From the NCBI GenBank assembly GCA_050012255.1, contig JBEKHN010000006.1, positions 45,454 through 109,453 on the forward strand: a stretch of DNA of 64,000 nt, written 5' to 3'. Within the stretch, counting starts at the first letter, position 1; each line of letters opens with the position of its first letter. Made by a program: the position numbers and the translations under genes. The notes under the pieces were generated by a model. That model had not been told where the DNA came from and made no database searches. It saw only the letters and a program-made list of their open reading frames with translations. Positions 3,608 to 19,594 of this stretch are shown piece by piece. This DNA is from Candidatus Bathyarchaeia archaeon (lineage in GTDB: Archaea > Thermoproteota > Bathyarchaeia > Bathyarchaeales > Bathycorpusculaceae).

Positions 3608-4594
3608 TTGGTCTCTTTGAGGGCTTTGGCCCCTTCTTTGACGCGGATCACGGTGGCTGCTGCTGTCGGAGCGGCTTTGCACATCGGCCAAGGGAATGCC
3701 GATTTGGTGGATGCGAAGGCTGTCGAGTTTTCGAGAGCTGTGCTGGCTCAGACGGATGTTGAAGGAGAAGTGATTGCTTGTGAAGGGCCTAAGGACAATG
3801 CGCCTGCGTTCCTGCGCAGAGAACTTGTGGGAACCGGGAAGGGCCCGAAGGTTCAGTTCGTCATCGACCCAGTTGACGGCACAACAGCTGCCTCAAAGGG
3901 CAGAAAAGACGCGATCTCGGCTCTCGCGTGTGCACCAGCAGGATGCTTCCAAGTGCTTCCAGACGACGGATACTACTTCAAGGTGGCAACGGATCACCGT
4001 TCAATCGGAAAAATCTCGTTAGAAATGTCGGTGGACGACATTGTGCGCACGGTTGCCCGCGAAAAGGGCTTGCCCCTTGAGAACTTCACCGTCATAATGT
4101 TGGAACGCGACAGGCACACGGGGATTCTGCAAAGTCTGAGAAAGCTGGGCGTAAGGATAATTCTCATTCCCGACGGTGACATCGCAGGAGCGGTTGTCAC
4201 GTGCCGACCAGGCTCAGGCATTGACCTTCTCGTCGGTGCAGGCGCAGGTCCAGAAGCGACCATTGCTGCAACAGCGATCAAGTGTCTGGGAGGCACGATG
4301 CTCGTCAAGGTTTGGAGAGACGAGAAAGATGATCAGAAACGGCTGGAAAGGTTGGCTACCGAAGGAGTAGACGTGGACAAGACTTATAGCGAAGACGAGC
4401 TTGCCAAGGGCAACGAACTTGTCTTTGCAGCCTCAGGCGTGACGAAGGGCGAACTCTTAGACGGCGTGCGTTTCATCCCAGAAGGCGCCGTGGTGAACTC
4501 CCTTTGCATGCGATTACCCAGCGGAACAGTGGAAAAGTCTGAAACGACTTTGCGCTTCAAAGGACACCCCGTGTACAAGAAGTTCCTACCATGA
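3608..4594 (+). CDS. glpX: Fructose-1,6-bisphosphatase class II
   Basis: EG.KDNAP, IDPVDGT, RDRH, DGDI, G.GPEATIAA, ASGVTKGELLDGV motifs. Confidence 0.9.
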   Translation: MVSLRALAPSLTRITVAAAVGAALHIGQGNADLVDAKAVEFSRAVLAQTDVEGEVIACEGPKDNAPAFLRRELVGTGKGPKVQFVIDPVDGTTAASKGRKDAISALACAPAGCFQVLPDDGYYFKVATDHRSIGKISLEMSVDDIVRTVAREKGLPLENFTVIMLERDRHTGILQSLRKLGVRIILIPDGDIAGAVVTCRPGSGIDLLVGAGAGPEATIAATAIKCLGGTMLVKVWRDEKDDQKRLERLATEGVDVDKTYSEDELAKGNELVFAASGVTKGELLDGVRFIPEGAVVNSLCMRLPSGTVEKSETTLRFKGHPVYKKFLP

Positions 4595-9972: not shown

Positions 9973-10701
9973 ATGATGGTTATGGCTGATGTCTTGAAAA
10001 TCATTCAGCAGAGACGGTCAATCAGGGTTCCTTTTAATCCGAATCGTCCAGTTTCCAAGGAGAACCTGAGGCAGATCCTCGAGGCGACGCGTTGGGCGCC
10101 GACGGCTCACAACATGCAGAACTTCGAAATTCTTGTCGTTGATGACAAGGAGGTTCTGGAGGAGATTGGAAAAATCAAATCCCGTGTGTCGGAAGCGTTC
10201 ATCCGTGAGAACTACCAGCAGCTGTCATTCTCGGAAGAGGAGTTGCTTCAGAAGAAGGTCGGAATCCTCGGCACCAATTTTCCGCCGGATTGGAGGGATC
10301 CTGACAAGCTGGACAAGGCTGTTCGTGAGAGCACGCCTTCGCCCCTGAACCAACGCATCAGAGGTAGTCCGCTGCTGCTGATAGTGATTTATGATTCTAG
10401 GAAGAAAGCGCCTGCTTCCGAGGGGGATGTTTTGGGTTTCATTAGCCTGGGCTGTGTGATGGAGAACATGTGGCTTATGGCCCAGTCGCTTGGGATAAGC
10501 GTTCACATATTGAGTGTGTTCAGCGGAGATGCCGTGGAAAAAGAGGTGAAGCGAATTCTCAACATCCCTGAAAACATGAAGGTTGCTTTTGCCATCCGTC
10601 TGGGATACCCCGTCTCCAGGCCGGCTAAACACCTGAGAGTGCGCCGTGACATGGAAATGCTCACGCATCATAATGGGTTTGGGAACAAGGGCTTCAGTTG
10701 A
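9973..10701 (+). CDS. Nitroreductase family protein
   Basis: RRSIR, APTAHNMQ, ENMWLMA..LG, LGYP. Confidence 0.9.
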   Translation: MMVMADVLKIIQQRRSIRVPFNPNRPVSKENLRQILEATRWAPTAHNMQNFEILVVDDKEVLEEIGKIKSRVSEAFIRENYQQLSFSEEELLQKKVGILGTNFPPDWRDPDKLDKAVRESTPSPLNQRIRGSPLLLIVIYDSRKKAPASEGDVLGFISLGCVMENMWLMAQSLGISVHILSVFSGDAVEKEVKRILNIPENMKVAFAIRLGYPVSRPAKHLRVRRDMEMLTHHNGFGNKGFS

Positions 10702-10731
10702 GAAAACCTTGTCTTGTTTTCGCGCGCGCTG

Positions 10732-10774
10732 GTGGACCGGTGGGGACTTGAACCCCAGACCTCCTGAGTGCAAG
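10732..10774. repeat. att site: duplicated 3' half of tRNA-Ala, with the chromosomal CCA just outside it
   Basis: GTGGACCGGTGGGGACTTGAACCCCAGACCTCCTGAGTGCAAG is identical to 18937-18979; TGG at 10730-10732 reads CCA on the minus strand. Confidence 0.95.
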
Positions 10775-11623
10775 ATGATTAATGATGCAATATGGGAAAA
10801 CTTTGGTACTTGGCTATTGAAAACACACAAACAAAGGAATGCAAAAGAAGCTCTAAGAAATGCTAAGAAGTATGCTGCAATCCTGGAAAAACCCAGCATG
10901 GCTTCACAGCTTCTAATGTTAAACAAAGACCTTAGAAGAGTAGCAATGAGTTCACTGAGCAATCTATCCAAGTATTTAGGAGTCTATGATCAATGGAAAC
11001 AGACAATAAGAAATTATGGCTTGAAATGGGAAAACACAACCAGTCTAGAAACATTTCTCAGCATTCTAAACAGCAATCTGGAAGAGACAGAAATCTGGCT
11101 TAGACAAGTCATTAAGAAGCTACCGAGTGACTACTCTACAATTTTGGTATTTGATGTCTTAACTGGATTGAGACCCAGTGAAGCAGCAATGTCATGCAAA
11201 CTGATAACAGACCTTTCAAACATGAACAAGCTGGACTCGTATCTGGATGGAGATCTAATGATGTTACAGCATTTCAGATTTCCAGACTTGTTCCTAAGGA
11301 AATCAAAGAATGCATACATATCATTCATAACCCCAGAACTGCTTCAGCTTGTTCTGAGAACAAAACCAAGTATCAAATATTCAGCAATAGACACAATGAT
11401 TGGCAGACAGGGTTTCAATACCAGAACAAAGCAGTTGAGAAAACTCTATGCAACCAGGCTGAGAAACGATTTGCCTCAAGAGCTCGTTGATTTATTGCAG
11501 GGAAGAATAAGCCAAACGATATTTATGAAATTCTACTATAAGCCTCTACTAAGAGACATCCAACAGAAAACAATCAAAGCACTGCAACCTCTACAAATGG
11601 AACTCCTGTCTCAAATACAGTGA
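10733..11623 (+). CDS. Integrase C-terminal catalytic fragment Int(C), SSV-type tyrosine recombinase
   Basis: TGLRPSEA, KSK, KQLRK, LQGR, FYY. The frame runs through att (WTGGDLNPRPPECK), and there is an ATG at 10775. Confidence 0.9.
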   Translation, partial: WTGGDLNPRPPECKMINDAIWENFGTWLLKTHKQRNAKEALRNAKKYAAILEKPSMASQLLMLNKDLRRVAMSSLSNLSKYLGVYDQWKQTIRNYGLKWENTTSLETFLSILNSNLEETEIWLRQVIKKLPSDYSTILVFDVLTGLRPSEAAMSCKLITDLSNMNKLDSYLDGDLMMLQHFRFPDLFLRKSKNAYISFITPELLQLVLRTKPSIKYSAIDTMIGRQGFNTRTKQLRKLYATRLRNDLPQELVDLLQGRISQTIFMKFYYKPLLRDIQQKTIKALQPLQMELLSQIQ

Positions 11624-11826
11624 GTCCTAGAAACCATGCTCATAAGAGACTACTGAAGCCCATCATCCAGCAGAACTCAGAGACAGAACACTCAAAGCAA
11701 TATCAGAGCTAGAACAAACACTAAACTAAGTGTTGAAACAAACCGAAACACTTCTCCCTCTTTTCCATGTATACAGAACTACGGTGAAAAACTTCTAGAG
11801 GGTCTTTGAAATCTTTGAAGGAAGCT

Positions 11827-12360
11827 TTAGGCTTTTGATTGTTGAAGCTGTTGTTCTCTTTTCTTCAGTTCGTTGTATAGATATTCAAACTGCTGTAGTG
11901 ACCTTGGAGACTGGAACTGTTTTCTATATCCGTCTACTACCAGCTTGATTTTTTCCCATAGAGGTATAGCTATATAGCCAAAGAGGTCGTCAACTAATCC
12001 GAGGTCTATGAGCTTTCTATTCAGAAGCACGCCTATTTGTTCGAACATCACGTTGACTATGCTCATACCGATAATTTCTGGTGAATCAACAAACCCCGTA
12101 GTAGTAGAATAATACTTTTTCACGAATTCATCATAGTCCTTGAAATCCAAGTTGAACGTTCTTGTCAAGGCTTTCCAGAATTCTTCACTACCAAAAGTTG
12201 AGTAAATTCTCATAAGAAGGTCTGCTTGCCTTGTCTCAATTTCTGCTTGTCTCGTCTTACTCTGATGTCTTATCTCCAGAACGTAGTAGACAACCCCAAC
12301 TAACACACCTGCTGCTGCCACCATTGCAGAAATCTCGGTTATGTCAACCATTCTTAACAC
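11827..12360 (-). CDS. Membrane-anchored DUF4760-like protein, paralog 1
   Basis: N-terminal TM (ISAMVAAAGVLVGVVYY), FEQIGVL..RKLID, FEYLYNE, shared with the two paralogs. Confidence 0.7.
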   Translation of the reverse strand: MLRMVDITEISAMVAAAGVLVGVVYYVLEIRHQSKTRQAEIETRQADLLMRIYSTFGSEEFWKALTRTFNLDFKDYDEFVKKYYSTTTGFVDSPEIIGMSIVNVMFEQIGVLLNRKLIDLGLVDDLFGYIAIPLWEKIKLVVDGYRKQFQSPRSLQQFEYLYNELKKREQQLQQSKA

Positions 12361-12920
12361 CTAGAAGACTCGTCAGGAGAATTAGAATCTAAGACTGCTG
12401 GGAGAATTGCTTTCGCCCAAGTTTTCCTTAGTTGTGGTTCTTTTCTCAGAAGCTCATTATGGAGATACTCGAATCCCGCCCCTAACACTGGTTCATTGAG
12501 TTCTCTTCTAAATCCCACTGTCAGTGGCTTGGTCTTTTCATAGATTTCCTTAATCGCTGAAACTCCAAAGACATCGTAGGTCAAGCCTAGGTCAATGTGT
12601 TTTCTGTAGAGAAGAGTGCCAACCAATTCAAAGAATCCACAAACAGTAGAGATTGCCTTGTTAATTTCTAGCCTTGCTTCGGAATGTCGTGGATAATTCT
12701 TTAGGAAGTCCTCGTAGTCTTTGAATTGCAGCCTCATGATTTTCGAGAATGCATCTTGAAATTCGTTGCTATGCAACCTTGAATACAGTCTTATGAGTAG
12801 GTCTGTCTGCTTCTGCTCGTGAAGATGCCTAAGCTCCAAAACAGTCAAGGCAACACCTATCAACACACCTATTGCTGCAACAATAGCTGAAATAGAAGGT
12901 ATGTCCAACATCCTTGTCAC
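12354..12920 (-). CDS. Membrane-anchored DUF4760-like protein, paralog 2
   Basis: N-terminal TM, FFELVGTLLYRKHID, FEYLHNE. Confidence 0.7.
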   Translation of the reverse strand: MTRMLDIPSISAIVAAIGVLIGVALTVLELRHLHEQKQTDLLIRLYSRLHSNEFQDAFSKIMRLQFKDYEDFLKNYPRHSEARLEINKAISTVCGFFELVGTLLYRKHIDLGLTYDVFGVSAIKEIYEKTKPLTVGFRRELNEPVLGAGFEYLHNELLRKEPQLRKTWAKAILPAVLDSNSPDESSRC

Positions 12921-13105
12921 CCAGAAGACAAGATTAGGTGAGATCAGTATTAAAGACTACATCATAAACCATGAAAAGAACATCAAATAGAAAAGAAGCC
13001 CAATAGTAGCTTATTATGTTAATAACAGACAGAATATTGTTTACTTCTTTTCAGTCCTTGTCAGTATCTTTGGTTCTTTCCACTCTTCCCTGAGGATGCT
13101 GTAGA
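12918..13105. repeat. Direct repeat of about 190 bp (GNAT 3' end + spacer + DUF4760-like promoter); second copy at 15242-15430
   Basis: Shared blocks ATCAGTATTAAAGACTACATCA and TATGTTAATAACAGACAGAATATTGTTTACTTCTTTTC. Confidence 0.92.
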
Positions 13106-13583
13106 CAAAGGAATCTCTCCATTCTCCTCTCGTGAAGAAGTTTCTACGATGTGTTCCTTCCTTCTTGAAACCAACTTTCTCTAAGACCTTCTGAGAGGCT
13201 ACATTTCTAGGGTCTGTCTGAGCTTGAACACGGCCTATGTCTTTGGAGAGAAACAAGTAATCCACCATAATTTTGACAGCTTCAGAGCAGTAGCCTTTCC
13301 CCCTCTCGTTTGGCACCAAACTGTAGCCGATTTCTAGTTGCCTACCTGCAATGTGTAGGACGTAGAAATGGGCTATGAAACCAATTTTGCTTCCATCTTT
13401 CTTCTCTATTATGAATGGTTTCAGCTCGTTAGGGTTCTCGAGCATCTTTTCTATATCTGTTCTGGACCCCTGATGCAAGGGATTGTATTCACCGAAGACC
13501 TCAGGCTTGTTGAACCATTCTGCAAATAATGGCAGATCCTCTTTCTCTATAGTTCTCAGATTTACATTCTTACCTTCAAGCAA
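13041..13583 (-). CDS. GNAT acetyltransferase, RimJ/RimL type, paralog 1
   Basis: EIGY...RGKGY, N.ASQKVLEKVGF..EG. Confidence 0.92.
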   Translation of the reverse strand: MLEGKNVNLRTIEKEDLPLFAEWFNKPEVFGEYNPLHQGSRTDIEKMLENPNELKPFIIEKKDGSKIGFIAHFYVLHIAGRQLEIGYSLVPNERGKGYCSEAVKIMVDYLFLSKDIGRVQAQTDPRNVASQKVLEKVGFKKEGTHRRNFFTRGEWRDSFVYSILREEWKEPKILTRTEKK

Positions 13584-13611
13584 CCTCTTTCACCTTTGAT
13601 TCTTGTCTTCT

Positions 13612-13634
13612 TGTTTCAGTTCTTATGACTTGTG
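13612..13634 (-). promoter_or_regulatory. Shared 23-bp promoter module; second copy at 17415-17437
   Basis: TGTTTCAGTTCTTATGACTTGTG is identical 27-29 nt upstream of the GNAT-1 and methyltransferase start codons. Confidence 0.75.
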
Positions 13635-13714
13635 GAAACATCCATGAACGAAACACTGGCAGCGCCAAATAGCTCTATCCATGAGAACCAATCTCAGATT
13701 CCTTCTCACAAGGA

Positions 13715-13792
13715 CTAGGCATGGATTCAATATCTCTACTATTATTTCAACGATGCTAAGAGACCTATCATTAGAGTGCCTGGTAGGCCAAA
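13715..13792. repeat. Imperfect non-coding repeat of about 80 bp; second copy at about 17831-17910
   Basis: Identical core TCAACGATGCTAAGA at 13747-13761 and 17864-17878, with similar flanks. Confidence 0.8.
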
Positions 13793-13894
13793 GGTAAAAT
13801 ACTATGCATTTTCGAAGTCACAAACTTCTAGGGAGTCCCTGAAAAGGAAAGTTCACAGAGAAAGAAAAGGAAGGAAGCTATTTTCATCAAGCTG

Positions 13895-14560
13895 TTATTT
13901 TAGCTCAAATGTATGGATAGCATCGAGTTTTGGATATTTTTTGAATAAGTGAGCGTTCACTAACTCTATGGAATTAACAGCTATTTTTCCAAACTCTGTG
14001 TCCCTCAGCTTTTCTAGGTGACTAATTAGTCTGGTGAAATCCTTATTCTTCTGAAAATGCATTATGCTGATGTGAGGCAAGAAAGGATAGTCAAATTTCC
14101 TCTCTATCATCTCGTGTATTGTTTGTAGTCTTCCAAATATTTCTTCGATTTTGCCTCCATCATGAACCTCCACGAAGACAACATCAGGGAAAATGTTGAG
14201 TTTAGAAAGGAAAACGTCAAATCTGCTAAATGGTTGTAAGACTTCTTTCGCTTGATTGATTATTCTTTGCAGGTTCTCAATCAAAATATCGTCTTCATAT
14301 TTCTCTGATTTTGCTAGGAATCCAAGTCCCATTACGGATATGTGAAAATAGTCTTTTGGGAATGGGGCTACACAAGAAATAGTGGATAGCCTATTCTGAA
14401 TTTCAACTATCTTCTCAATCAGTTCTTCATTTCTGATTCTTACATGAAAAGTCAGATATTGACTTCTTCCTTTGGTCCAATCATTGTCAATCCAATATTT
14501 CTTTACATTCAATTGGATATTCTTTCTTCTTTCCCAAACATCCCTGAATCTGTTGTTCAT
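13895..14560 (-). CDS. 2H phosphoesterase (2'-5' RNA ligase family)
   Basis: Two HxS motifs (FHISV, PHISI). Confidence 0.8.
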   Translation of the reverse strand: MNNRFRDVWERRKNIQLNVKKYWIDNDWTKGRSQYLTFHVRIRNEELIEKIVEIQNRLSTISCVAPFPKDYFHISVMGLGFLAKSEKYEDDILIENLQRIINQAKEVLQPFSRFDVFLSKLNIFPDVVFVEVHDGGKIEEIFGRLQTIHEMIERKFDYPFLPHISIMHFQKNKDFTRLISHLEKLRDTEFGKIAVNSIELVNAHLFKKYPKLDAIHTFELK

Positions 14561-14776
14561 ATACTGAATTGATAATCCTTTTCGCCTAAAGTCTTTTTGA
14601 ACTATGCAGTTCAGTTAGTGCACACTACAGCACATCAAAAACACTCAAACAACCAGAACAGTCATTCAACACTATCGCAACAATTCGACAAAACAAAATT
14701 AATCTATCCTTATGCACACACTTTCTGAACTACGATGAAAAACTTCTACAGACCCTCTGAAATCTTTGGAGAAATG

Positions 14777-15244
14777 CTAGGTTTTTGGTTGTTGAAGCTT
14801 CTGGTCTCTTTTCTTCAGTTCATTATAGAGATACTCGAACCAAAAGCATTTGTCTGAATGCATTTCTTTAAGTGTAGACTCGTTCTTTTCCCATACCTGT
14901 TTCACTGGTTCAGCGAACAGTTCTCTAGCCATATCTATGTCCAAGAGTTTTCTATAGAGTAACAACCCGACTTCTTCATAGTATGTGCTCATTTTAAGAA
15001 GCTCCTTCCAACCTTGTCCCTTGATATATTCATTGAAGTCTTTCTCTCCCCTGACCTTCAGTTGATACCAGTAATTCATGACCTCTTCAGTCAATATCCC
15101 TTGGTATAATCTCAAGGTAAGGTCTGTTTGCCTTGTTCTGTTCTGATTTCTCATATCAAGTATATAGTAGACAACACCAACTAGCACACCAGCAGCAGCT
15201 ACCATTGCTGAAACAGAAGTTACGTCAAACTCCATTTGTTTCAC
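14777..15244 (-). CDS. Membrane-anchored DUF4760-like protein, paralog 3
   Basis: SAMVAAAGVLVGVVYY, YEEVGLLLYRKLLD, FEYLYNELKKR. Confidence 0.7.
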   Translation of the reverse strand: MKQMEFDVTSVSAMVAAAGVLVGVVYYILDMRNQNRTRQTDLTLRLYQGILTEEVMNYWYQLKVRGEKDFNEYIKGQGWKELLKMSTYYEEVGLLLYRKLLDIDMARELFAEPVKQVWEKNESTLKEMHSDKCFWFEYLYNELKKRDQKLQQPKT

Positions 15245-15365
15245 CCAAAAGACCAGATAACCCGCAATCAGTATTAAAGACTACATCACAAACCATGAAG
15301 AGAATGATTATTTAGAAAAGAAGCCTAATCTAAGCTCTATATGTTAATAACAGACAGAATATTGT

Positions 15366-15926
15366 TTACTTCTTTTCGGTCCTTGTCAGTATCTTTGGTT
15401 CTTTCCACTCTTCTCTGAGGATGCTGTAGAGATGGTAATCGGTCCATGCTCCTCGCACGAACAGCAGTTTTCGAATAGTCCCTTCTATCTTTAAGCCTGC
15501 TTTCTCCAAAACTTTCTGTGCCGTTTTGTTCCTTACATTTGTGCATGCTTGTATACGACCAATGTTTTTTGAGAGAAATAGGTAATCAACCATTAACTGA
15601 GTCGCTTCTGCTCCGTATCCTTTCCCTCTTTCGCTAGGAACAAAAAAGCAACCGATTTCCATCACCCCGTATGGCTGATTAATAAAATGCCAGACAAACC
15701 CCATTCTATTTCCGTCCTTCTTCTGAACTATAAACTTCTTCCACTCAATCGAAATCGCTATGTTCGGGGGATTGTCAAAATTTTGCATCAATCCTGACTT
15801 CGAAGTCTGCTCAAATACAGGATTGCTGTATTCCCCCCAGAAATACATGTTATTGAAGCATTCAGCTAGAAAATCAATGTCGTCTCTCTCCAAAACCCTC
15901 AGATTCACAGTCTTCCCTTCAAGCAA
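15366..15926 (-). CDS. GNAT acetyltransferase, RimJ/RimL type, paralog 2
   Basis: ERGKGYG, KVLEKAG..IEG; same termini as paralog 1. Confidence 0.92.
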   Translation of the reverse strand: MLEGKTVNLRVLERDDIDFLAECFNNMYFWGEYSNPVFEQTSKSGLMQNFDNPPNIAISIEWKKFIVQKKDGNRMGFVWHFINQPYGVMEIGCFFVPSERGKGYGAEATQLMVDYLFLSKNIGRIQACTNVRNKTAQKVLEKAGLKIEGTIRKLLFVRGAWTDYHLYSILREEWKEPKILTRTEKK

Positions 15927-15950
15927 ATCAAGTCACCATTCAAACCAATT

Positions 15951-16032
15951 ACTTTCGGTTCAGCTATAACTTTTCCGCAAAACCAAAAACTGACTATCTT
16001 CAAGCGGTTTTTGTCAGTATTTTTGGTTCTTT
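15951..16032. repeat. Direct repeat of about 82 bp (gene tail + promoter); second copy at 16576-16659
   Basis: Identical 31-mer ACTTTCGGTTCAGCTATAACTTTTCCGCAAA (BRE/TATA-like on the minus strand) plus the KEPKILT-coding 22-mer. Confidence 0.92.
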
Positions 16033-16551
16033 CCATTCTTCTCTTAGAATGCTGTGGAGATAGTGATCAGTCCATACTCCTCTAACGAGCGTAAGTTTTC
16101 GGATAGTCCCTTCTATTCTGAAACCTGCTTTCTCCAGAACCCTCTGTGACGCTTTGTTCCCCACGTTTGTCGTTGCTTCTATCCGAACGATGTCTTTAGA
16201 GAGAAATAGATAATCAACCATTAACTGGACTGCTTCTGTTCCATATCCTTTCCCCCTTTCGCTGGGAAGAAGAAAGTACCCGATTTCCATCGTCCCGTAT
16301 GGCTGATTAGTCCTGTGATGGACAAGCCCAATTCTGGTTCCGTCCTTCTTCTGAATGATGAACATCTTTAAGCCAAGCATTTTTTGAAACTCTGTAGGAT
16401 TATCAAAACTCTTCATCCATTCTGACTTCGACATCTGCTCCTCAATTGGGATGTAATCCGCACAGAAACCCCCGTCATTATGGCATCCAACCTCAAAATC
16501 AATGTCATCACTCTCAATTACCCTCAGATTCACAGTCCTACCTTCAAGCAA
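16000..16551 (-). CDS. GNAT acetyltransferase, RimJ/RimL type, paralog 3
   Basis: EIGY..ERGKGYG, NKASQRVLEKAGF. Confidence 0.92.
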   Translation of the reverse strand: MLEGRTVNLRVIESDDIDFEVGCHNDGGFCADYIPIEEQMSKSEWMKSFDNPTEFQKMLGLKMFIIQKKDGTRIGLVHHRTNQPYGTMEIGYFLLPSERGKGYGTEAVQLMVDYLFLSKDIVRIEATTNVGNKASQRVLEKAGFRIEGTIRKLTLVRGVWTDHYLHSILREEWKEPKILTKTA

Positions 16552-16626
16552 CTCAGTTCACCAAACCACAGAGTCACTTTCGGTTCAGCTATAACTTTTC
16601 CGCAAAGTAGGAGAACTGAAAAACCT

Positions 16627-17388
16627 TCAAGCTCTTTTTGTCAGTATCTTTGGTTCTTTATCAATAACAGCTATGTATGCTGAGTCACCAGAATCTATGA
16701 ATTCCCTGATCTTCCATCCTGTTCCTTTGAGTATCTCTTCCATTTCTTTCTTGGATACTATCAGGTAATCGAACCATCTGCCAACGCATTTCCTGAATCT
16801 TATTCTTACTCTTAACTGTCCTGCCATTCTGCCTTTTTTCTTGTTGAGCTTGTGATATTCCAAGTGGTCAGGATTGTCAGTCTTGTATGTGTCACGAGTA
16901 CTGGCAATAATCAATCCATTCTTGGAAGTCATTCTATGAAACTTCTTCAGCAATCTTCTTGCCTTCTTGAAACTGCCAAACAGCCCAAAATTGCTTCCCA
17001 TCATAATAATCGTGTCGAAGGAATTGGGCTTGAAATTCAATTCTTCAATTGACATAACTCTTGCCCGTTTCAAGCCTCTCAACTTGCAGATTTTGATCGC
17101 AAGAGGAGAACTGTCAATTCCCAACACGTCAAAACCCATCTTCTGCAAATACGGAGAATGCCTACCAGCTCCGCAACCGATGTCCAAAACCCTTCCTTTC
17201 ACGAATTCCATAGCCTTTCTATCAATGAGATCCCAATTTTCATACTCTGAAAAATAGAATCCTGGACCCTTTGGGGATGCATTAAAGTAGCCATCATCCC
17301 TTTCCACTATCTCAGAAGCTTCTTCACGTTTGTAGCAAGCCCACATCTCCTGACCAAACGTATCTTCCTCAGGCTCAAGTTTCTTCAT
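16627..17388 (-). CDS. Class I SAM-dependent methyltransferase
   Basis: [19 protein letters not shown] motifs. Confidence 0.92.
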
Positions 17389-17939
17389 GTCAAATCATTG
17401 ATTACATCTTTTCCTGTTTCAGTTCTTATGACTTGTGCTAATCCGACAATTTAACATCGAAAATCATGTCCAGCCACTTTTAATGTCAAGAACAGCATGT
17501 CAAGTGGAGCACTTACGATTAAAAAAGTCTGTCTTCAGAGTTTGACCTTTGCTTTCTAGAAGTGGAAAATCCAGATATCTGGCTGTAGCAGTGTTTTAAA
17601 CGGTCCTAGCAATTGGAAAAGAAACACACAAAGCAAATGGAATGCATCTCTCATGAAGACAGAAAGAGAGAAGCAAACAAACCTTTGTACCTTGCTAGGT
17701 ATGAATGAATACAATCCTTTTCTTATTAATTGAACATGTTGCACGCCCACACATGCATAGACACAATGATGTACTCCAATACAACAAGGTTCATTGAAGA
17801 AACAAACCTGATTTCCTTCTTCTTACAGAAGCTAAGCATAGACCAATATCTCCTATTGTTATCTCAACGATGCTAAGAAACAATCATCAGAATACCAGGT
17901 ATTCGCAAGGAGGAATTCCTAGCAGCTACGATGACTGCT

Positions 17940-18314
17940 CTACCTCCATTTATGAGGTGTAAATCTACTCTTAGGAACTGCTTTTCTGTTGTAAGAGGCT
18001 AGTCCAAACTTGTGCAATATTCTTAGCAGTATGGATGCTTGGTGCATAATCTCTCTGTGACTAAACTCCCTGCCGTTCCAGGTTTCTTTGGTAGTAAACA
18101 ACTGTCCATCCTTGATTATGAGTAATGGCTTTCCTGGATACCGATAGAATATCATGCCAGACTCATCCCATATTTCTGGAATTGCTTTAACCGACAACTC
18201 ATCGAAAAGTCCTTTGATTGAATCAGCATCAAAGTTGGATAGTTTATACCCATAGTATCTAACTATCCTATTCTTCTGATATTCAATGGGAGTGACTAAT
18301 TCTAACTCACTCAA
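17940..18314 (-). CDS. Hypothetical protein (element backbone)
   Basis: 124-aa ORF with protein-like composition, divergent from Int(N); no recognised motif. Confidence 0.6.
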   Translation of the reverse strand: MSELELVTPIEYQKNRIVRYYGYKLSNFDADSIKGLFDELSVKAIPEIWDESGMIFYRYPGKPLLIIKDGQLFTTKETWNGREFSHREIMHQASILLRILHKFGLASYNRKAVPKSRFTPHKWR

Positions 18315-18721
18315 ATCTTGACCATTCCGAACTAAGCCTGGATTAGTACTCGATCATTTAGAAGACATATCATACTATATCTGCTCTGTGTAGATACACA
18401 GTTAGTGCATAGGCTTTCTATGGACAAACAATGGAGATCAACATATGCAAAAGCACCCTAACTTACTCTTTATAATAGAATGACCCTCCATCACTTCTAA
18501 TGTCACGTTCTAAATCGGGAGTCACATTCTGGACAGAAGCTATAGAAACTAGCTCTCTTCTCTGTTGAAAGGATGTTTTCCTTTGTGCCTTTGTAGGTTG
18601 AAAGATGTCTTAAAGCACATCCGAGTTTTGATGGAACAAATAGAACGTATCCAGCCTCTGAAGAATGGTCTTTAAGGGTCCTTAAATTCTCTGATTGCTC
18701 GTCAGGAGGTCAGTGATTAGA

Positions 18722-19000
18722 ATGACTAAGATTGAATGCCCAGTATGTGGAATTTCTGGCTTTCTGCAAGTAAGAGGGACTAATGTGATGGTCCAACACT
18801 ACCAAGGATTCAGGGATAATAGAAGAATTTACATTTACCATAGAGTTCCTTATGAACTGTTTCAGAACTTGCAAGTAAATGCAAGTAAAACTAAGCAAGT
18901 AAATGAGCCTGATTTGAACCTTATTTCTAAAATGAAGTGGACCGGTGGGGACTTGAACCCCAGACCTCCTGAGTGCAAGTCAGGCGTTCATACCAACTGA
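18722..19000 (+). CDS. Integrase N-terminal fragment Int(N) with a putative Zn-binding motif
   Basis: GGAGG SD; MTKIECPVCG...QH...YH; reads in frame into att (WTGGDLNPRPPECK) and stops inside the tRNA. Confidence 0.85.
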   Translation: MTKIECPVCGISGFLQVRGTNVMVQHYQGFRDNRRIYIYHRVPYELFQNLQVNASKTKQVNEPDLNLISKMKWTGGDLNPRPPECKSGVHTN

Positions 19001-19011
19001 ACTACCGGCCC
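18938..19011 (-). tRNA. tRNA-Ala(TGC)
   Basis: Minus strand GGGCCGGTAGTTCAGTTGGTATGAACGCCTGACTTGCACTCAGGAGGTCTGGGGTTCAAGTCCCCACCGGTCCA folds as a cloverleaf with anticodon TGC and the G3-U70 identity pair. Confidence 0.97.
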
Positions 19012-19188: not shown

Positions 19189-19329
19189 CTAGAATCTTCT
19201 TGTCGAAGTTCTTCGCTTGGACCAGCATTCTCGGCAGTAAACAGGTCTGCTTGGGTCAGGTTTGAAGGGAACTTCGCACTCCTTTCCACAATCAGCACAA
19301 ACTGCCTTATGCATCTCTTTCTCTGCCAT
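19189..19329 (-). CDS. CxxC-x17-CxxC zinc-ribbon microprotein (46 aa, not in the ORF track)
   Basis: MAEKEMHKAVCADCGKECEVPFKPDPSRPVYCRECWSKRRTSTRRF; GGAG SD upstream. Confidence 0.9.
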   Translation of the reverse strand: MAEKEMHKAVCADCGKECEVPFKPDPSRPVYCRECWSKRRTSTRRF

Positions 19330-19594
19330 ATACTATTTCAACTCCTTTGATTGGTTTGTGCAGAAATTGCTTCTTGCACGACGCTATGAAATGGACTAGC
19401 AACTTATAAAACTTGCCGTGAAGAAACAAGGCCCAACGGTGGCTTCTTCCATAATGTTAGACCATGTTTCTCAATGAACGCAGTTCATTGGGAGGCCAGC
19501 TGGAGCAGACTCCTTGTCGTATCTGGCGATCCTTCAGCATCACGTTTTTAAGCAAAGTCTTGCTACCTTAGGGTTCCCTCAAACGGTGAGGCGA

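Follow-up and report, generated by a model that had tools for sequence, protein, structure and literature searches.

Genomes of lambdoid and other phages are mosaics in which modules are exchanged at short conserved boundary ('linker') sequences, chimeric genes of the Lepore type result from unequal crossover or deletion between tandem neighbors, and, in archaea, the integrase gene of integrative elements of the SSV type is split when the element inserts into a tRNA gene. The locus described here resembles each of these in part and also recalls integron cassettes and C-terminal peptide tags. It lies in a window of 64,000 nt from Candidatus Bathyarchaeia archaeon (GCA_050012255.1, contig JBEKHN010000006.1, positions 45,454-109,453), in which a class I SAM-dependent methyltransferase (MT) gene ends with the same short coding sequence as three genes for unrelated, RimJ-like acetyltransferases of the GNAT family (Table 1). 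We consider it probable that this shared tail, KEPKILT, is a recombination joint and a scar, rather than a shared tag, and that the history proposed below is broadly the right one.

As in phage mosaic exchange, similarity switches sharply at one short sequence, the trees of neighboring modules are discordant, and all module combinations are found. In contrast to the phage case, the joint is located within a coding sequence, so that a non-homologous enzyme gains nine foreign codons, and the host is not a phage but an integrated island, together with chromosomal arrays, of archaea; a search of the IMG/VR viral contigs yielded no relative of the GNATs or of the MT. With Lepore-type fusions, the locus shares the in-frame junction of adjacent genes at a short similarity, yielding one gene body with the end and 3' flank of another gene, but the partners here are non-homologous, the similarity amounts to a microhomology of 8/10 bases, and just nine codons were transferred.

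Table 1. Features of the MT/GNAT array and of the integrated element that carries it (window coordinates)
Feature	Position	Strand	Details	Basis
MT, class I SAM-dependent methyltransferase	16627-17388	-	253 aa	ORF; Pfam and PDB relatives
MT core, up to codon K244	16657-17388	-		similarity to tail-less alleles drops after K244
Grafted GNAT-type gene end	16627-16656	-	codons 245-253 (EPKILTKRA) and stop	homologous to GNAT-3 end
22-mer copy on MT	16638-16659	-	K244 codon and EPKILT	exact 22-mer match
MT/GNAT-3 spacer	16552-16626	-	oligo-T run directly after stop, then module B (16575-16612)	homologous to GNAT-3/GNAT-2 spacer
GNAT-3, RimJ-like acetyltransferase	16000-16551	-	22-mer 16011-16032	ORF, Pfam
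GNAT-3/GNAT-2 spacer	15927-15999	-	second module B copy	repeat comparison
GNAT-2	15366-15926	-	22-mer 15383-15404; ends KILTRTEKK; then module C 21-mer (15340-15360)	ORF, Pfam
GNAT-1	13041-13583	-	22-mer 13058-13079; then module C (13015-13035)	ORF, Pfam
Module A upstream of MT	17411-17437	-	promoter-like	repeat family
Module A upstream of GNAT-1	13608-13634	-	promoter-like	repeat family
Two DUF4760 genes	11827-12920	-	11827-12360 and 12354-12920; downstream of GNAT-1	ORFs, Pfam
2H-phosphoesterase/LigT-like gene and third DUF4760 gene	13895-15244	-	13895-14560 and 14777-15244	ORFs, domain matches
Left att copy	10732-10774			direct repeat
Right att copy	18937-18979		3' part of tRNA-Ala(TGC), 18937-19011 (-)	direct repeat, tRNA call
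Integrase, N-terminal piece	18695-19000	+	runs into right att copy	ORF, att phase
Integrase, C-terminal piece	10646-11623	+	starts across left att copy	PF16795, phrog_5127

The 22-mer TTGTCAGTATCTTTGGTTCTTT matches the window four times when up to three mismatches are allowed, against an expectation of 0.00 (100 shuffles). Three copies are exact and the one in GNAT-3 carries a single mismatch, as the preliminary description of this DNA had stated, and all four are located at the 3' ends of minus-strand ORFs. That description had also noted a 23-bp module shared by the upstream regions of MT and GNAT-1; the module, designated A, is indeed common to both genes and is somewhat longer, with 26 of 27 nt identical, beginning 51 nt (GNAT-1) and 49 nt (MT) before the start codons. 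At the opposite end of the gene, the similarity between MT and GNAT-3 extends past the tail, through the stop codon and the entire spacer (16575-16659 versus 15950-16032), including module B, of which the genome contains six copies. We infer a terminator role for the oligo-T run in the spacers and a promoter role for the modules.

All three acetyltransferases match Acetyltransf_3 (PF13302) at E values of 3e-25, 4e-14, and 1e-20 for GNAT-1, GNAT-2, and GNAT-3, respectively (90, 54.1, and 75 bits versus a cut-off of 25.4), without equivalog-level identity to RimJ, RimL, or SpeG (best NCBIfam scores of 44.7-51.2 bits versus cut-offs of 184-218). The MT matches Methyltransf_11 (E 1.4e-15, 58.1 bits, cut-off 21.2) and Methyltransf_25 (E 9e-15, 55.6 bits, cut-off 27), reaches no NCBIfam equivalog cut-off, and contains no GNAT domain detectable with Pfam; its translation includes a stretch that fits the glycine-rich SAM motif. 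The best PDB relatives of the MT, 9khp and 9klx (E 4e-40), align over residues 20-240, and the alignment of the GNATs to solved structures stops at ...EEWK, residue 174, so that the tail lies beyond the aligned region in both families. A literature search retrieved neither the KEPKILT tail peptide nor anything related under the PDB entries 9KHP, 9KLX, and 9KM6.

The junction between MT and tail is not an assembly artifact. It is bridged by Logan contigs from two studies, one of 2388 nt that spans 16578-17600 with 0 differences (X1 record 7) and one of 935 nt that spans 16579-17513 with 20 differences (X2 record 14), and the same junction is present in several independent metagenome assemblies (L047 and L048, from two samples, L050, L045, and P0001). 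The preliminary description had raised the possibility of a misassembly at the repeat, and both the 22-mer and the spacer are in fact repeats at which Logan unitigs end; given that the contigs of both studies and the other assemblies contain the junction, the probability that it is a chimera is negligible. Logan joints that omit MT or GNAT-2 were discounted as evidence, their short sides measuring 21-35 nt at 90% likeness.

Its distribution identifies KEPKILT as the C-terminus native to one RimJ-like GNAT family, which belongs to a single Bathyarchaeial order. The tail is present on 32 of 32 GNATs chosen regardless of tail, namely, all 8 GNAT paralogs of the genome from which the window derives and all 24 GNATs adjoining MT genes in metagenome loci. 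When 401 Bathyarchaeia genomes were searched for the 22-mer with at most two mismatches, all 15 matches outside this genome proved to be GNAT ends, as did 26 of 27 such matches to exact codings of KEPKILT in 201 genomes of the order. A GTDB-wide scan yielded 86 matches, 71 of which were GNAT ends and the remainder unrelated; one of the 86 (L128), first labelled an MT, is a chance match on a GC-rich bacterial contig without MT homology. No third family with the tail was found in the source genome, in 445 kb of loci, in the 401 and 201 genomes, or in the GTDB scan. Instead of several unrelated families, as would be expected of a shared tag, the carriers in these searches are two only, the GNATs and one clade of MTs.

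On the MTs, the tail is foreign. The native ends of MT relatives consist of ...IEK followed by 1-8 residues, and the tail is absent from both MT paralogs of the same genome and from all eight MT genes whose end was read among the 13 MT loci of relatives. Among 169 distinct MT relatives, 138 are tail-less, about 10 retain remnants, and 21 have a clear tail, defined as at least 3 of 6 residue matches; all clear tails and the 10 remnants fall within a single 75-row MT clade with a support of 99. Every MT tail read as DNA is followed by a 3' flank of the GNAT type, either module B and then a GNAT gene or module C and then DUF4760. Type 1 and type 2 MT tails each have a different GNAT flank, and an oligo-T run follows the stop codon in the type-1 flanks. 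With so many tailed MTs, remnants, and several flank types, the one-off deletion fusion that the preliminary description had named as a ground for rejecting its reading does not apply. The upstream side of the gene is another matter: module A, previously read as a sign that MT occupies a borrowed GNAT slot, precedes 32 of 75 MT genes, tail-less and outgroup genes included, as well as 10 of 24 GNAT genes, and does not mark such a slot. The same succession of parts, from module A through body and tail to module B, recurs at GNAT genes such as L050:842-1375 and L052:3446-3988.

In every MT allele read, the junction lies at the identical nucleotide, on the codon boundary between K244 and E245. Four pairs of MT loci match at 26-30 of 30 bases through the body and at only about 10-15 of 30 directly after K244, and in the case of L045, with the tail, and L053, with a native end, the genes are near-identical upstream too. 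The crossover at the KEPKILT-coding sequence, one of the two alternatives proposed from the window, is supported in substance, in the form of a GNAT 3' end that comes with its flank and a breakpoint placed exactly between K244 and E245. A GNAT gene ending in KILTKKPSV (L047:1716-2249), as though it had received the native end of an MT, was considered as the reciprocal product and rejected, given that its downstream DNA is not alignable to native MT flanks.

The trees of gene bodies are discordant with the types of 3' end. The 3'-end types are scattered across the tree calculated from 32 MT cores, where, for example, the tailed L050 is the sister of L051, which has a native end (97/84), and native-end alleles are nested among tailed ones (97/84, 100/95), their 3' DNA being homologous to that of outgroup MTs. 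Approximately unbiased (AU) tests, for which the MT and GNAT groups were defined after sight of a first tree, rejected a single clade for the MT cores with tails of any kind (p 7e-5), of type 1 (2e-5), and of type 2 (2e-8), and likewise for the GNAT bodies with module-B and module-C flanks (p 5e-57 and 4e-10). Within the window, the stretch around the tail of GNAT-1 (13027-13106) agrees with GNAT-2 at 77 of 80 positions, whereas the bodies of the two genes match at only about 60% (10-14 of 20), and the similarity of GNAT-2 to GNAT-3 ends directly after the tail. Overall, sharp breakpoints at one short conserved sequence are seen in four MT pairs and two GNAT pairs, and upstream and downstream modules occur in every combination. 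An alternative account would be that the fusion happened by deletion just once, long ago, and was passed on vertically without further exchange, the variety of tails being attributable to drift alone. The restriction of tails and remnants to one strongly supported MT clade fits such an event, as does the same-nucleotide junction in all alleles, but neither the scattering of tailed cores across the tree, nor the nested native-end alleles with their outgroup-like 3' DNA, nor the difference in GNAT flank between type 1 and type 2 tails does, which makes a single fusion highly improbable.

The explanation that we favor, repeated recombination at the joint, would run as follows. KEPKILT, native to the multi-copy RimJ-like GNATs of a single Bathyarchaeial order, would be kept on them by selection as a C-terminal extension, and the approximately 22 nt encoding it, together with the spacer behind, would constitute a conserved joint in variable GNAT/methyltransferase/DUF4760 islands, at which recombination reshuffles gene bodies relative to 3' modules. 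The two main 3' modules are B, an oligo-T run and a putative promoter followed by another GNAT gene, and C, followed by DUF4760. In one MT clade, the native end ATT GAA AAA / AAA CCT AGT CCT TCA AAA TGA (IEK-KPSPSK and stop; the slash marks the cut) appears to have been swapped in frame for a GNAT end, AAA / GAA CCA AAG ATA CTG ACA ..., which would have arrived with its own flank. The cut coincides with a microhomology, AAA-RAA-CCW-A (8/10 bases), that may have played a part in the exchange, and the simplest route would be that an MT was joined, by deletion or by unequal crossover, to the tail of a GNAT gene lying downstream of it. The 22-mer common to both families and the body of the MT genes would then have permitted later exchanges and contractions of the GNAT array, by which closely related MTs came to carry different types of tail and flank, the MT of the window being one such product, composed of module A, an MT body, nine GNAT codons, module B, and GNAT-3. 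The nine residues themselves would be a drifting passenger on the MT, neither a docking nor a degron tag. The exact pre-fusion arrangement was not found at any locus, so that deletion fusion and double-crossover replacement fit alike and, for each pair of alleles, the tail may have been gained or the native end regained. If this history is correct, these uncultivated archaea provide a clean, datable case in which a short conserved gene-end sequence lets non-homologous genes trade 3' ends along with regulatory flanks.

A different reading, raised in outline in the preliminary description, is that KEPKILT is a selected tag for docking, targeting, or degradation that both enzymes need and that the MT acquired adaptively. 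Similar to known C-terminal peptide tags, such as degrons and sorting signals, the tail of the GNATs is short, terminal, conserved, and outside the folded domain. It is retained on GNATs that are just 50-70% identical and lies beyond the region aligned to solved structures, as would be expected of a short linear motif. The constraint on the tail, however, differs between the two families. In GNAT tails, 13 codon differences are nonsynonymous and 37 synonymous (a ratio near 0.12), and none of the 32 tails is frame-broken, whereas MT tails show 10 and 5, respectively (a ratio near 0.7), and the frame is broken in 3 of 12 distinct alleles, one by a 1-nt deletion (L049) and two by frameshifts (L046 and L068); the difference is significant (Fisher p 0.006), although the counts are small and scored against a consensus and the sequences are related, so that the p-values overstate the significance. 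Constraint is thus relaxed on the MT. The decay of the MT tail is not dramatic, which counts against the scar reading and in favor of a tag: EPKILT is exact in 9 of the 21 clear MT tails, and across these 21 rows the tail mismatch rate of 0.167 does not significantly exceed the rate in the core (0.113, p 0.09) and is equivalent to that of the 12 residues that close the core (0.163). Nevertheless, in contrast to a functional tag, KEPKILT has reached an unrelated family by DNA graft only, always in the company of a GNAT DNA flank, and is not maintained there; the GNATs possess it by descent, the genome, locus, and GTDB searches described above revealed no further carriers, near-identical MT genes occur with the tail and with a native end, and most MT relatives do without it. 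We therefore regard a shared tag as improbable. As a general caution, a terminal peptide common to unrelated enzymes can be a recombination scar instead of a functional tag.

The coding sequence of the tail deserves separate consideration, as the conserved entity may be DNA or RNA. Lysine is encoded by AAA in 25 of 25 and 34 of 34 GNAT tails, isoleucine by ATA in 22 of 23, and threonine by ACA in 21 of 23, compared with general usages of 46%, 36%, and 32% for AAA, ATA, and ACA, respectively, and GAA is also nearly fixed. Synonymous diversity of the GNAT tail is 0.22 versus 0.45 elsewhere (p 0.047). The synonymous positions of the 22-mer, singled out in the preliminary description as the means of telling a DNA site from a peptide tag, give a divided answer, with the K, E, I, and T codons being near-fixed as in a DNA site, and the wobble positions of P176 and L179 being free and the second K alternating between AAG and AAA. 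The codons appear more uniform than the peptide requires, which counts against the scar reading and for which homogenization is the only explanation that we offer. Alternatively, the sequence at the GNAT stop codon might be a conserved DNA or RNA element, for instance one arm (5') of a terminator hairpin, a regulatory site, or a true recombination site, in which case the MT would have taken over a 3' control module with the peptide as a by-product. Consistent with this view, the GNAT-3 tail and GTCAGTTTTTGGTTTT, located 18 nt downstream, can form a 16-bp hairpin with a U run behind it (z -3.85; 0 of 200 shuffles fold as well), the type-1 flanks have their oligo-T run after the stop, and switch points lie at junctions on both sides of the 22-mer. 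However, the hairpin is found in just about 4-5 of 25 GNAT 3' ends, for which reason it was rejected as a general explanation, and is absent from the MT copy (z -0.56). Moreover, the 22-mer is unconserved behind MT bodies despite the same flanks, the free wobble positions and the AAG/AAA alternation are not those of a fixed element, attC-like inverted repeats are absent, and no Rfam family was matched. On balance, an element of this kind seems rather unlikely as the primary cause of the conservation.

It is also conceivable, if unlikely, that the 22-mer and modules A and B form the borders of a cassette system, a diversity generator that is integron-like but without attC, in which the bodies of enzymes that modify small molecules or proteins (GNATs, MTs) are actively and preferentially swapped by a dedicated or short-homology-dependent recombination, and that the near-fixed synonymous positions are selected for recombination. 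The resemblance to integron cassettes consists in the array of small modifying-enzyme genes on the same strand, the conserved sequences between them, and the tyrosine recombinase on or near the element. Unlike in integrons, inverted repeats are limited to arms of 10-18 nt at non-equivalent places, none of them attC-like, each spacer has its own promoter-like module, and there is no IntI-type integrase with attI, the sole recombinase being an integrase of the archaeal type that is split at the att site in the tRNA gene. Were the joint shown to be in active use for recombination, it would represent a new kind of cassette system.

The array in the window resides on an island of 8.2 kb that is integrated in a tRNA-Ala gene, bounded by a perfect 43-bp direct repeat (att, 43/43 nt), and lower in G+C than its flanks. 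The C-terminal piece of the integrase matches phrog_5127 (integrase, 2.7e-9) and, at 22.2 bits and thus below the cut-off of 27, PF16795 (E 1.4e-4). Both integrase pieces read WTGGDLNPRPPECK across att in phase 2, and their 95 and 282 codons would make 377 if joined. As in SSV-type elements with a split integrase, one copy of the att repeat lies in the tRNA gene and the integrase pieces are located in phase at opposite ends; this likeness applies to the carrier of the array, not to the tail. An empty integration site was not found in genomes of the same genus, two of which (G001 and G007) keep the right flank and the tRNA (94%) and differ on the other side. PADLOC returned only a generic methyltransferase-domain match (mad2, DrmMII), and the GNAT, DUF4760, and LigT-like proteins matched none of its systems. 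Variable arrays that combine GNAT, methyltransferase, and DUF4760 genes, and that in some cases lie on elements integrated in a tRNA gene, would seem to be a plastic part of Bathyarchaeial genomes. Related MT/GNAT arrays were also observed on contigs of up to 880 kb.

The KEPKILT tail, found on an unrelated class I SAM-dependent methyltransferase (MT), belongs to the GNAT family of RimJ-like acetyltransferases. The four copies of the 22-mer in the window (at most 3 mismatches, 0.00 expected) lie exactly where the preliminary description had placed them, at the ends of MT and of the three GNAT genes; GNAT-1 and GNAT-2 terminate in ...EEWKEPKILTRTEKK. In a six-frame scan of the window's own genome, the tail ends seven GNAT genes and one MT, with the eighth GNAT paralog carrying the variant KKPRILT. 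The tail was found on 32/32 GNATs picked without regard to it, namely 24 adjoining MT genes in metagenome loci and the eight own paralogs. Of 401 Bathyarchaeia genomes, 12 contain the 22-mer (at most 2 mismatches); these 12 all belong to the order of the window, and each of the 15 non-own matches is a GNAT 3' end. A search for KEPKILT in any coding, covering 201 genomes of that order, gave 34 matches in 24 of them (none for the backwards control), and 26 of the 27 non-own matches are GNAT ends, the other being internal to an unrelated ORF. When all GTDB species genomes were scanned with a partly degenerate pattern, 113 stretches matched, and the 80 analysed contained 86 matches: 70 in-frame GNAT ends, one frameshifted GNAT (in locus L194) and 15 unrelated ones, mostly outside Bathyarchaeia, with about 9 expected by chance by our own arithmetic. 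The alignment of GNAT to solved RimJ-like structures stops at ...EEWK, so that the tail is an extension past the known fold. The frameshift in L194 (minus strand, near 3900) is due to a 1-nt insertion (REEWKRTQNTDKT*). An unrelated bacterial family in two Clostridia MAGs (L129 and L134) ends in ...ILITEKEPKILTLL, which contains EKEPKILT by chance, the same string as at the MT junction.

No GNAT domain was detected in MT with Pfam, and the tail on this family is not the one-off that had been considered. Among 169 distinct full-length MTs (the 120 best of 4113 homologs plus the MT genes of the compared loci), 138 end 1-8 residues, rarely more, past the conserved ...IEK, and 21 carry a tail matching EPKILT at 3 or more of 6 places, 9 of them exactly; some 10 others retain tail remnants. 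All 31 tailed or remnant-bearing MTs fall into one clade (75 rows, support 99), and their tails include both GNAT kinds (...KILTKTA-like and ...KILTRTEKK) as well as others (KTARE, KTTEKQESQ). Two MT paralogs in the own genome end in ...VAVIRKGC and ...VAIIEKVA, the latter being frameshifted; the 10 same-genus genomes have only an MT type of 59-64% identity, with no closer match. The second paralog (G000:C4:85882-86630, ~62% identical) contains a frameshift and internal stops and adjoins a tRNA-like sequence, the same sequence that follows MT in two same-genus loci (L014 and L022). In another locus (L058:4001-4735), the MT gene contains an in-frame stop, and a GNAT gene follows directly.

The DNA at the MT gene ends points to the manner in which the tail was acquired. 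The native end reads ATT GAA AAA/AAA CCT AGT CCT TCA AAA TGA (IEK-KPSPSK*), point or 1-nt variants of which yield EKA* or EKT*, and outgroup MTs have the homologous end HPNPSK*. Tailed alleles read ATT GAA AAA/GAA CCA AAG ATA CTG ACA, followed by one of two continuations: in type 1 (L044, which is the window, L047/L048, L050, L062 and L075), K(T/R)A*, an oligo-T run, module B and a GNAT gene; in type 2 (L045, L092/L114, L116/L117, L049, L046 and L068), RTEKK*, module C and DUF4760. Both are ordinary 3' flanks of GNAT genes. Native and tailed ends share AAA-RAA-CCW-A over the junction (8/10 bases), which, judging from the sequences, is the likely crossover point. Four MT locus pairs have an identity of 26-30/30 in the body that drops to ~10-15/30 right after codon K244, and tailed L045 and native-ended L053 are near-identical for 270 nt upstream as well. 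Most probably, the MT 3' end was exchanged in frame, at microhomology, for a GNAT 3' end plus flank, and MT carries the tail for this reason; the drop in likeness and the GNAT-type flanks support the crossover at the KEPKILT-coding sequence that had been proposed as one of two explanations. A misassembly at the repeat is at odds with the bridging of the MT/tail junction by contigs from two studies, one of which shares its source with the MT relative P0001 (96% identical protein), and with the recurrence of this junction in several other assemblies.

The other explanation, a selected peptide tag common to unrelated enzymes, fares poorly on the MT side. Codon differences from the consensus GAA CCA AAG ATA CTG ACA number 37 synonymous and 13 nonsynonymous, 6 of the latter being K to R, across 22 distinct GNAT tails, and no frame is broken in 32 genes. 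Across 7 distinct in-frame tails of MTs, the counts are 5 synonymous and 10 nonsynonymous, and of 12 distinct MT tail alleles 3 are disrupted, L049 by a 1-nt deletion that yields EPKI* and L046 and L068 by frameshifts. The rough ratios, drawn from related sequences and small counts, are 0.12 for GNAT and 0.70 for MT tails (Fisher p 0.006). However, a strong claim of MT tail decay is countered by the 21 MTs matching at 3 or more of 6 places, in which tail mismatch (0.167) is not significantly higher than core mismatch (0.113, p 0.09) and equals the rate in the last 12 core residues. On MT, the nine residues are most plausibly a passenger.

Whether synonymous positions of the 22-mer are conserved, as in a DNA site, or free, as in a peptide tag, received a mixed answer. 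In GNAT genes, four codons are near-fixed: K174 (AAA in 25/25 genes and in 34/34 matches where AAG was allowed; usage 46%), E175 (GAA 23/23; usage in the same genes 63%), I178 (ATA 22/23; 36%) and T180 (ACA 21/23; 32%). Codon choice is free at P176 and L179, and the second K codon alternates between AAG and AAA. Overall, codon use in the tail is less variable than the peptide alone would demand: the mean synonymous pair difference is 0.22, versus 0.45 for the 61 other conserved columns compared (p 0.047). Homogenisation through recombination at the tail would explain this uniformity; a DNA- or RNA-level role could, less probably, do so as well. The GNAT-3 tail pairs with GTCAGTTTTTGGTTTT located 18 nt downstream, and the resulting 16-bp hairpin precedes a U run (window 15927-16038, minus strand; z -3.85, 0/200 shuffles folding as well). 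Comparable pairing was observed for just 4-5 of the 25 GNAT ends, and the MT copy lacks the hairpin. Searches for attC-like repeats and for an Rfam family returned none.

Exchange at the tail extends beyond a single event. When 32 MT cores, without the tail, were placed in a maximum-likelihood tree, end types were intermixed with strong support, L050 (type 1) being sister to L051 (native) at 97/84. AU tests, for groups set after the first protein tree had been seen, rejected the grouping of all tailed MTs (p 7e-5), of type 1 (2e-5) and of type 2 (2e-8). Likewise, in a tree of 24 GNAT bodies, neither module-B-flanked nor module-C-flanked genes form clades (p 5e-57 and 4e-10). The bodies of GNAT-1 and GNAT-2 agree at only 10-14/20 positions, but the stretch that begins at SILREEW and continues past the tail into module C agrees at 77/80, and GNAT-2 and GNAT-3 match at ~16/20 up to the tail, with likeness lost after it. 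The similarity of MT to GNAT-3 reaches further than previously described, covering the tail, the stop codon context and the entire spacer, which runs to the next gene and contains promoter-like module B (6 copies genome-wide). Upstream, as had been noted, MT and GNAT-1 share a module at similar distance, module A (27 nt, 26/27 identical), starting 49 and 51 nt before the respective start codons; it precedes 32/75 MT, 10/24 GNAT and 0/10 DUF4760 genes, 48-49 nt from the start. Every combination of upstream (A, B) and downstream (B, C, other) modules was found. The bodies and 3' modules of the arrays were recombined at the short conserved sequence coding for the tail, which acts as a recurrent switch point. 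Mosaic exchange at conserved boundary sequences and chimeric genes arising by unequal crossover are known processes; by analogy, the process at the tail appears known in kind, in a new setting.

The GNAT/MT array sits within an 8.2-kb island of a 2.35-Mb Bathyarchaeial MAG (38 contigs, G+C 0.48).

Features of the island and its gene array (window coordinates)
Feature	Coordinates	Strand	Remarks
Island in tRNA-Ala(TGC)	10732-18979		perfect 43-bp direct repeat (att) at both ends
att, left	10732-10774
att, right	18937-18979		3' part of tRNA-Ala(TGC)
Integrase, C piece	10646-11623
Integrase, N piece	18695-19000
GNAT-1	13041-13583	minus	Acetyltransf_3 (Pfam)
GNAT-2	15366-15926	minus	Acetyltransf_3 (Pfam)
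GNAT-3	16000-16551	minus	Acetyltransf_3 (Pfam)
MT	16627-17388	minus	Methyltransf_11/25 (Pfam)

Both pieces of the split integrase read WTGGDLNPRPPECK through the repeat in one phase, giving 377 codons if joined; the C piece matches the phrog_5127 integrase (2.7e-9) and scores below the cut-off for the archaeal integrase Pfam family. The island has a G+C of 0.36-0.42 versus 0.46-0.50 outside. Two same-genus genomes share the tRNA and the right flank at 94% identity; their DNA past the tRNA differs, and one of the two has another GNAT there. Other island genes are three DUF4760 and one LigT-like 2H phosphoesterase, and the ORFs include none recognisable as replication or virion genes. The GNATs and MT can be assigned, from sequence, at the family level. 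Just outside the element (window ~19190-19380), ~170-190 nt resemble a dispersed short repeat, with many matches at 74-85% identity, in every searched genome of the genus (query positions 161-378).

Several recurring elements were observed in the array. The octamer GCTTGAAG spans the stop codon in tails of the KTA type (GCT TGA AG; window 16000-16040 and 16620-16660) and, in another frame, lies at the beginning of each GNAT gene (TTG CTT GAA GG; 16540-16551, 15915-15926 and 13572-13583), the first five codons of which show almost no synonymous variation (TTG 24/24, CTT 23/24, GAA 25/25). GNAT followed directly by DUF4760, a domain of no known function, is a recurring pair (window 12354-13583 and 14777-15926; on another contig, G000:C15:24156-25311). 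In all four runs, summed Logan contig depth on the tail, spacer and GNAT-start modules (window 15377-15453 and 15916-16069) was ~30 to several hundred times that on gene bodies, which implies a great many different contexts for these modules in communities of wetland, peat and sediment.
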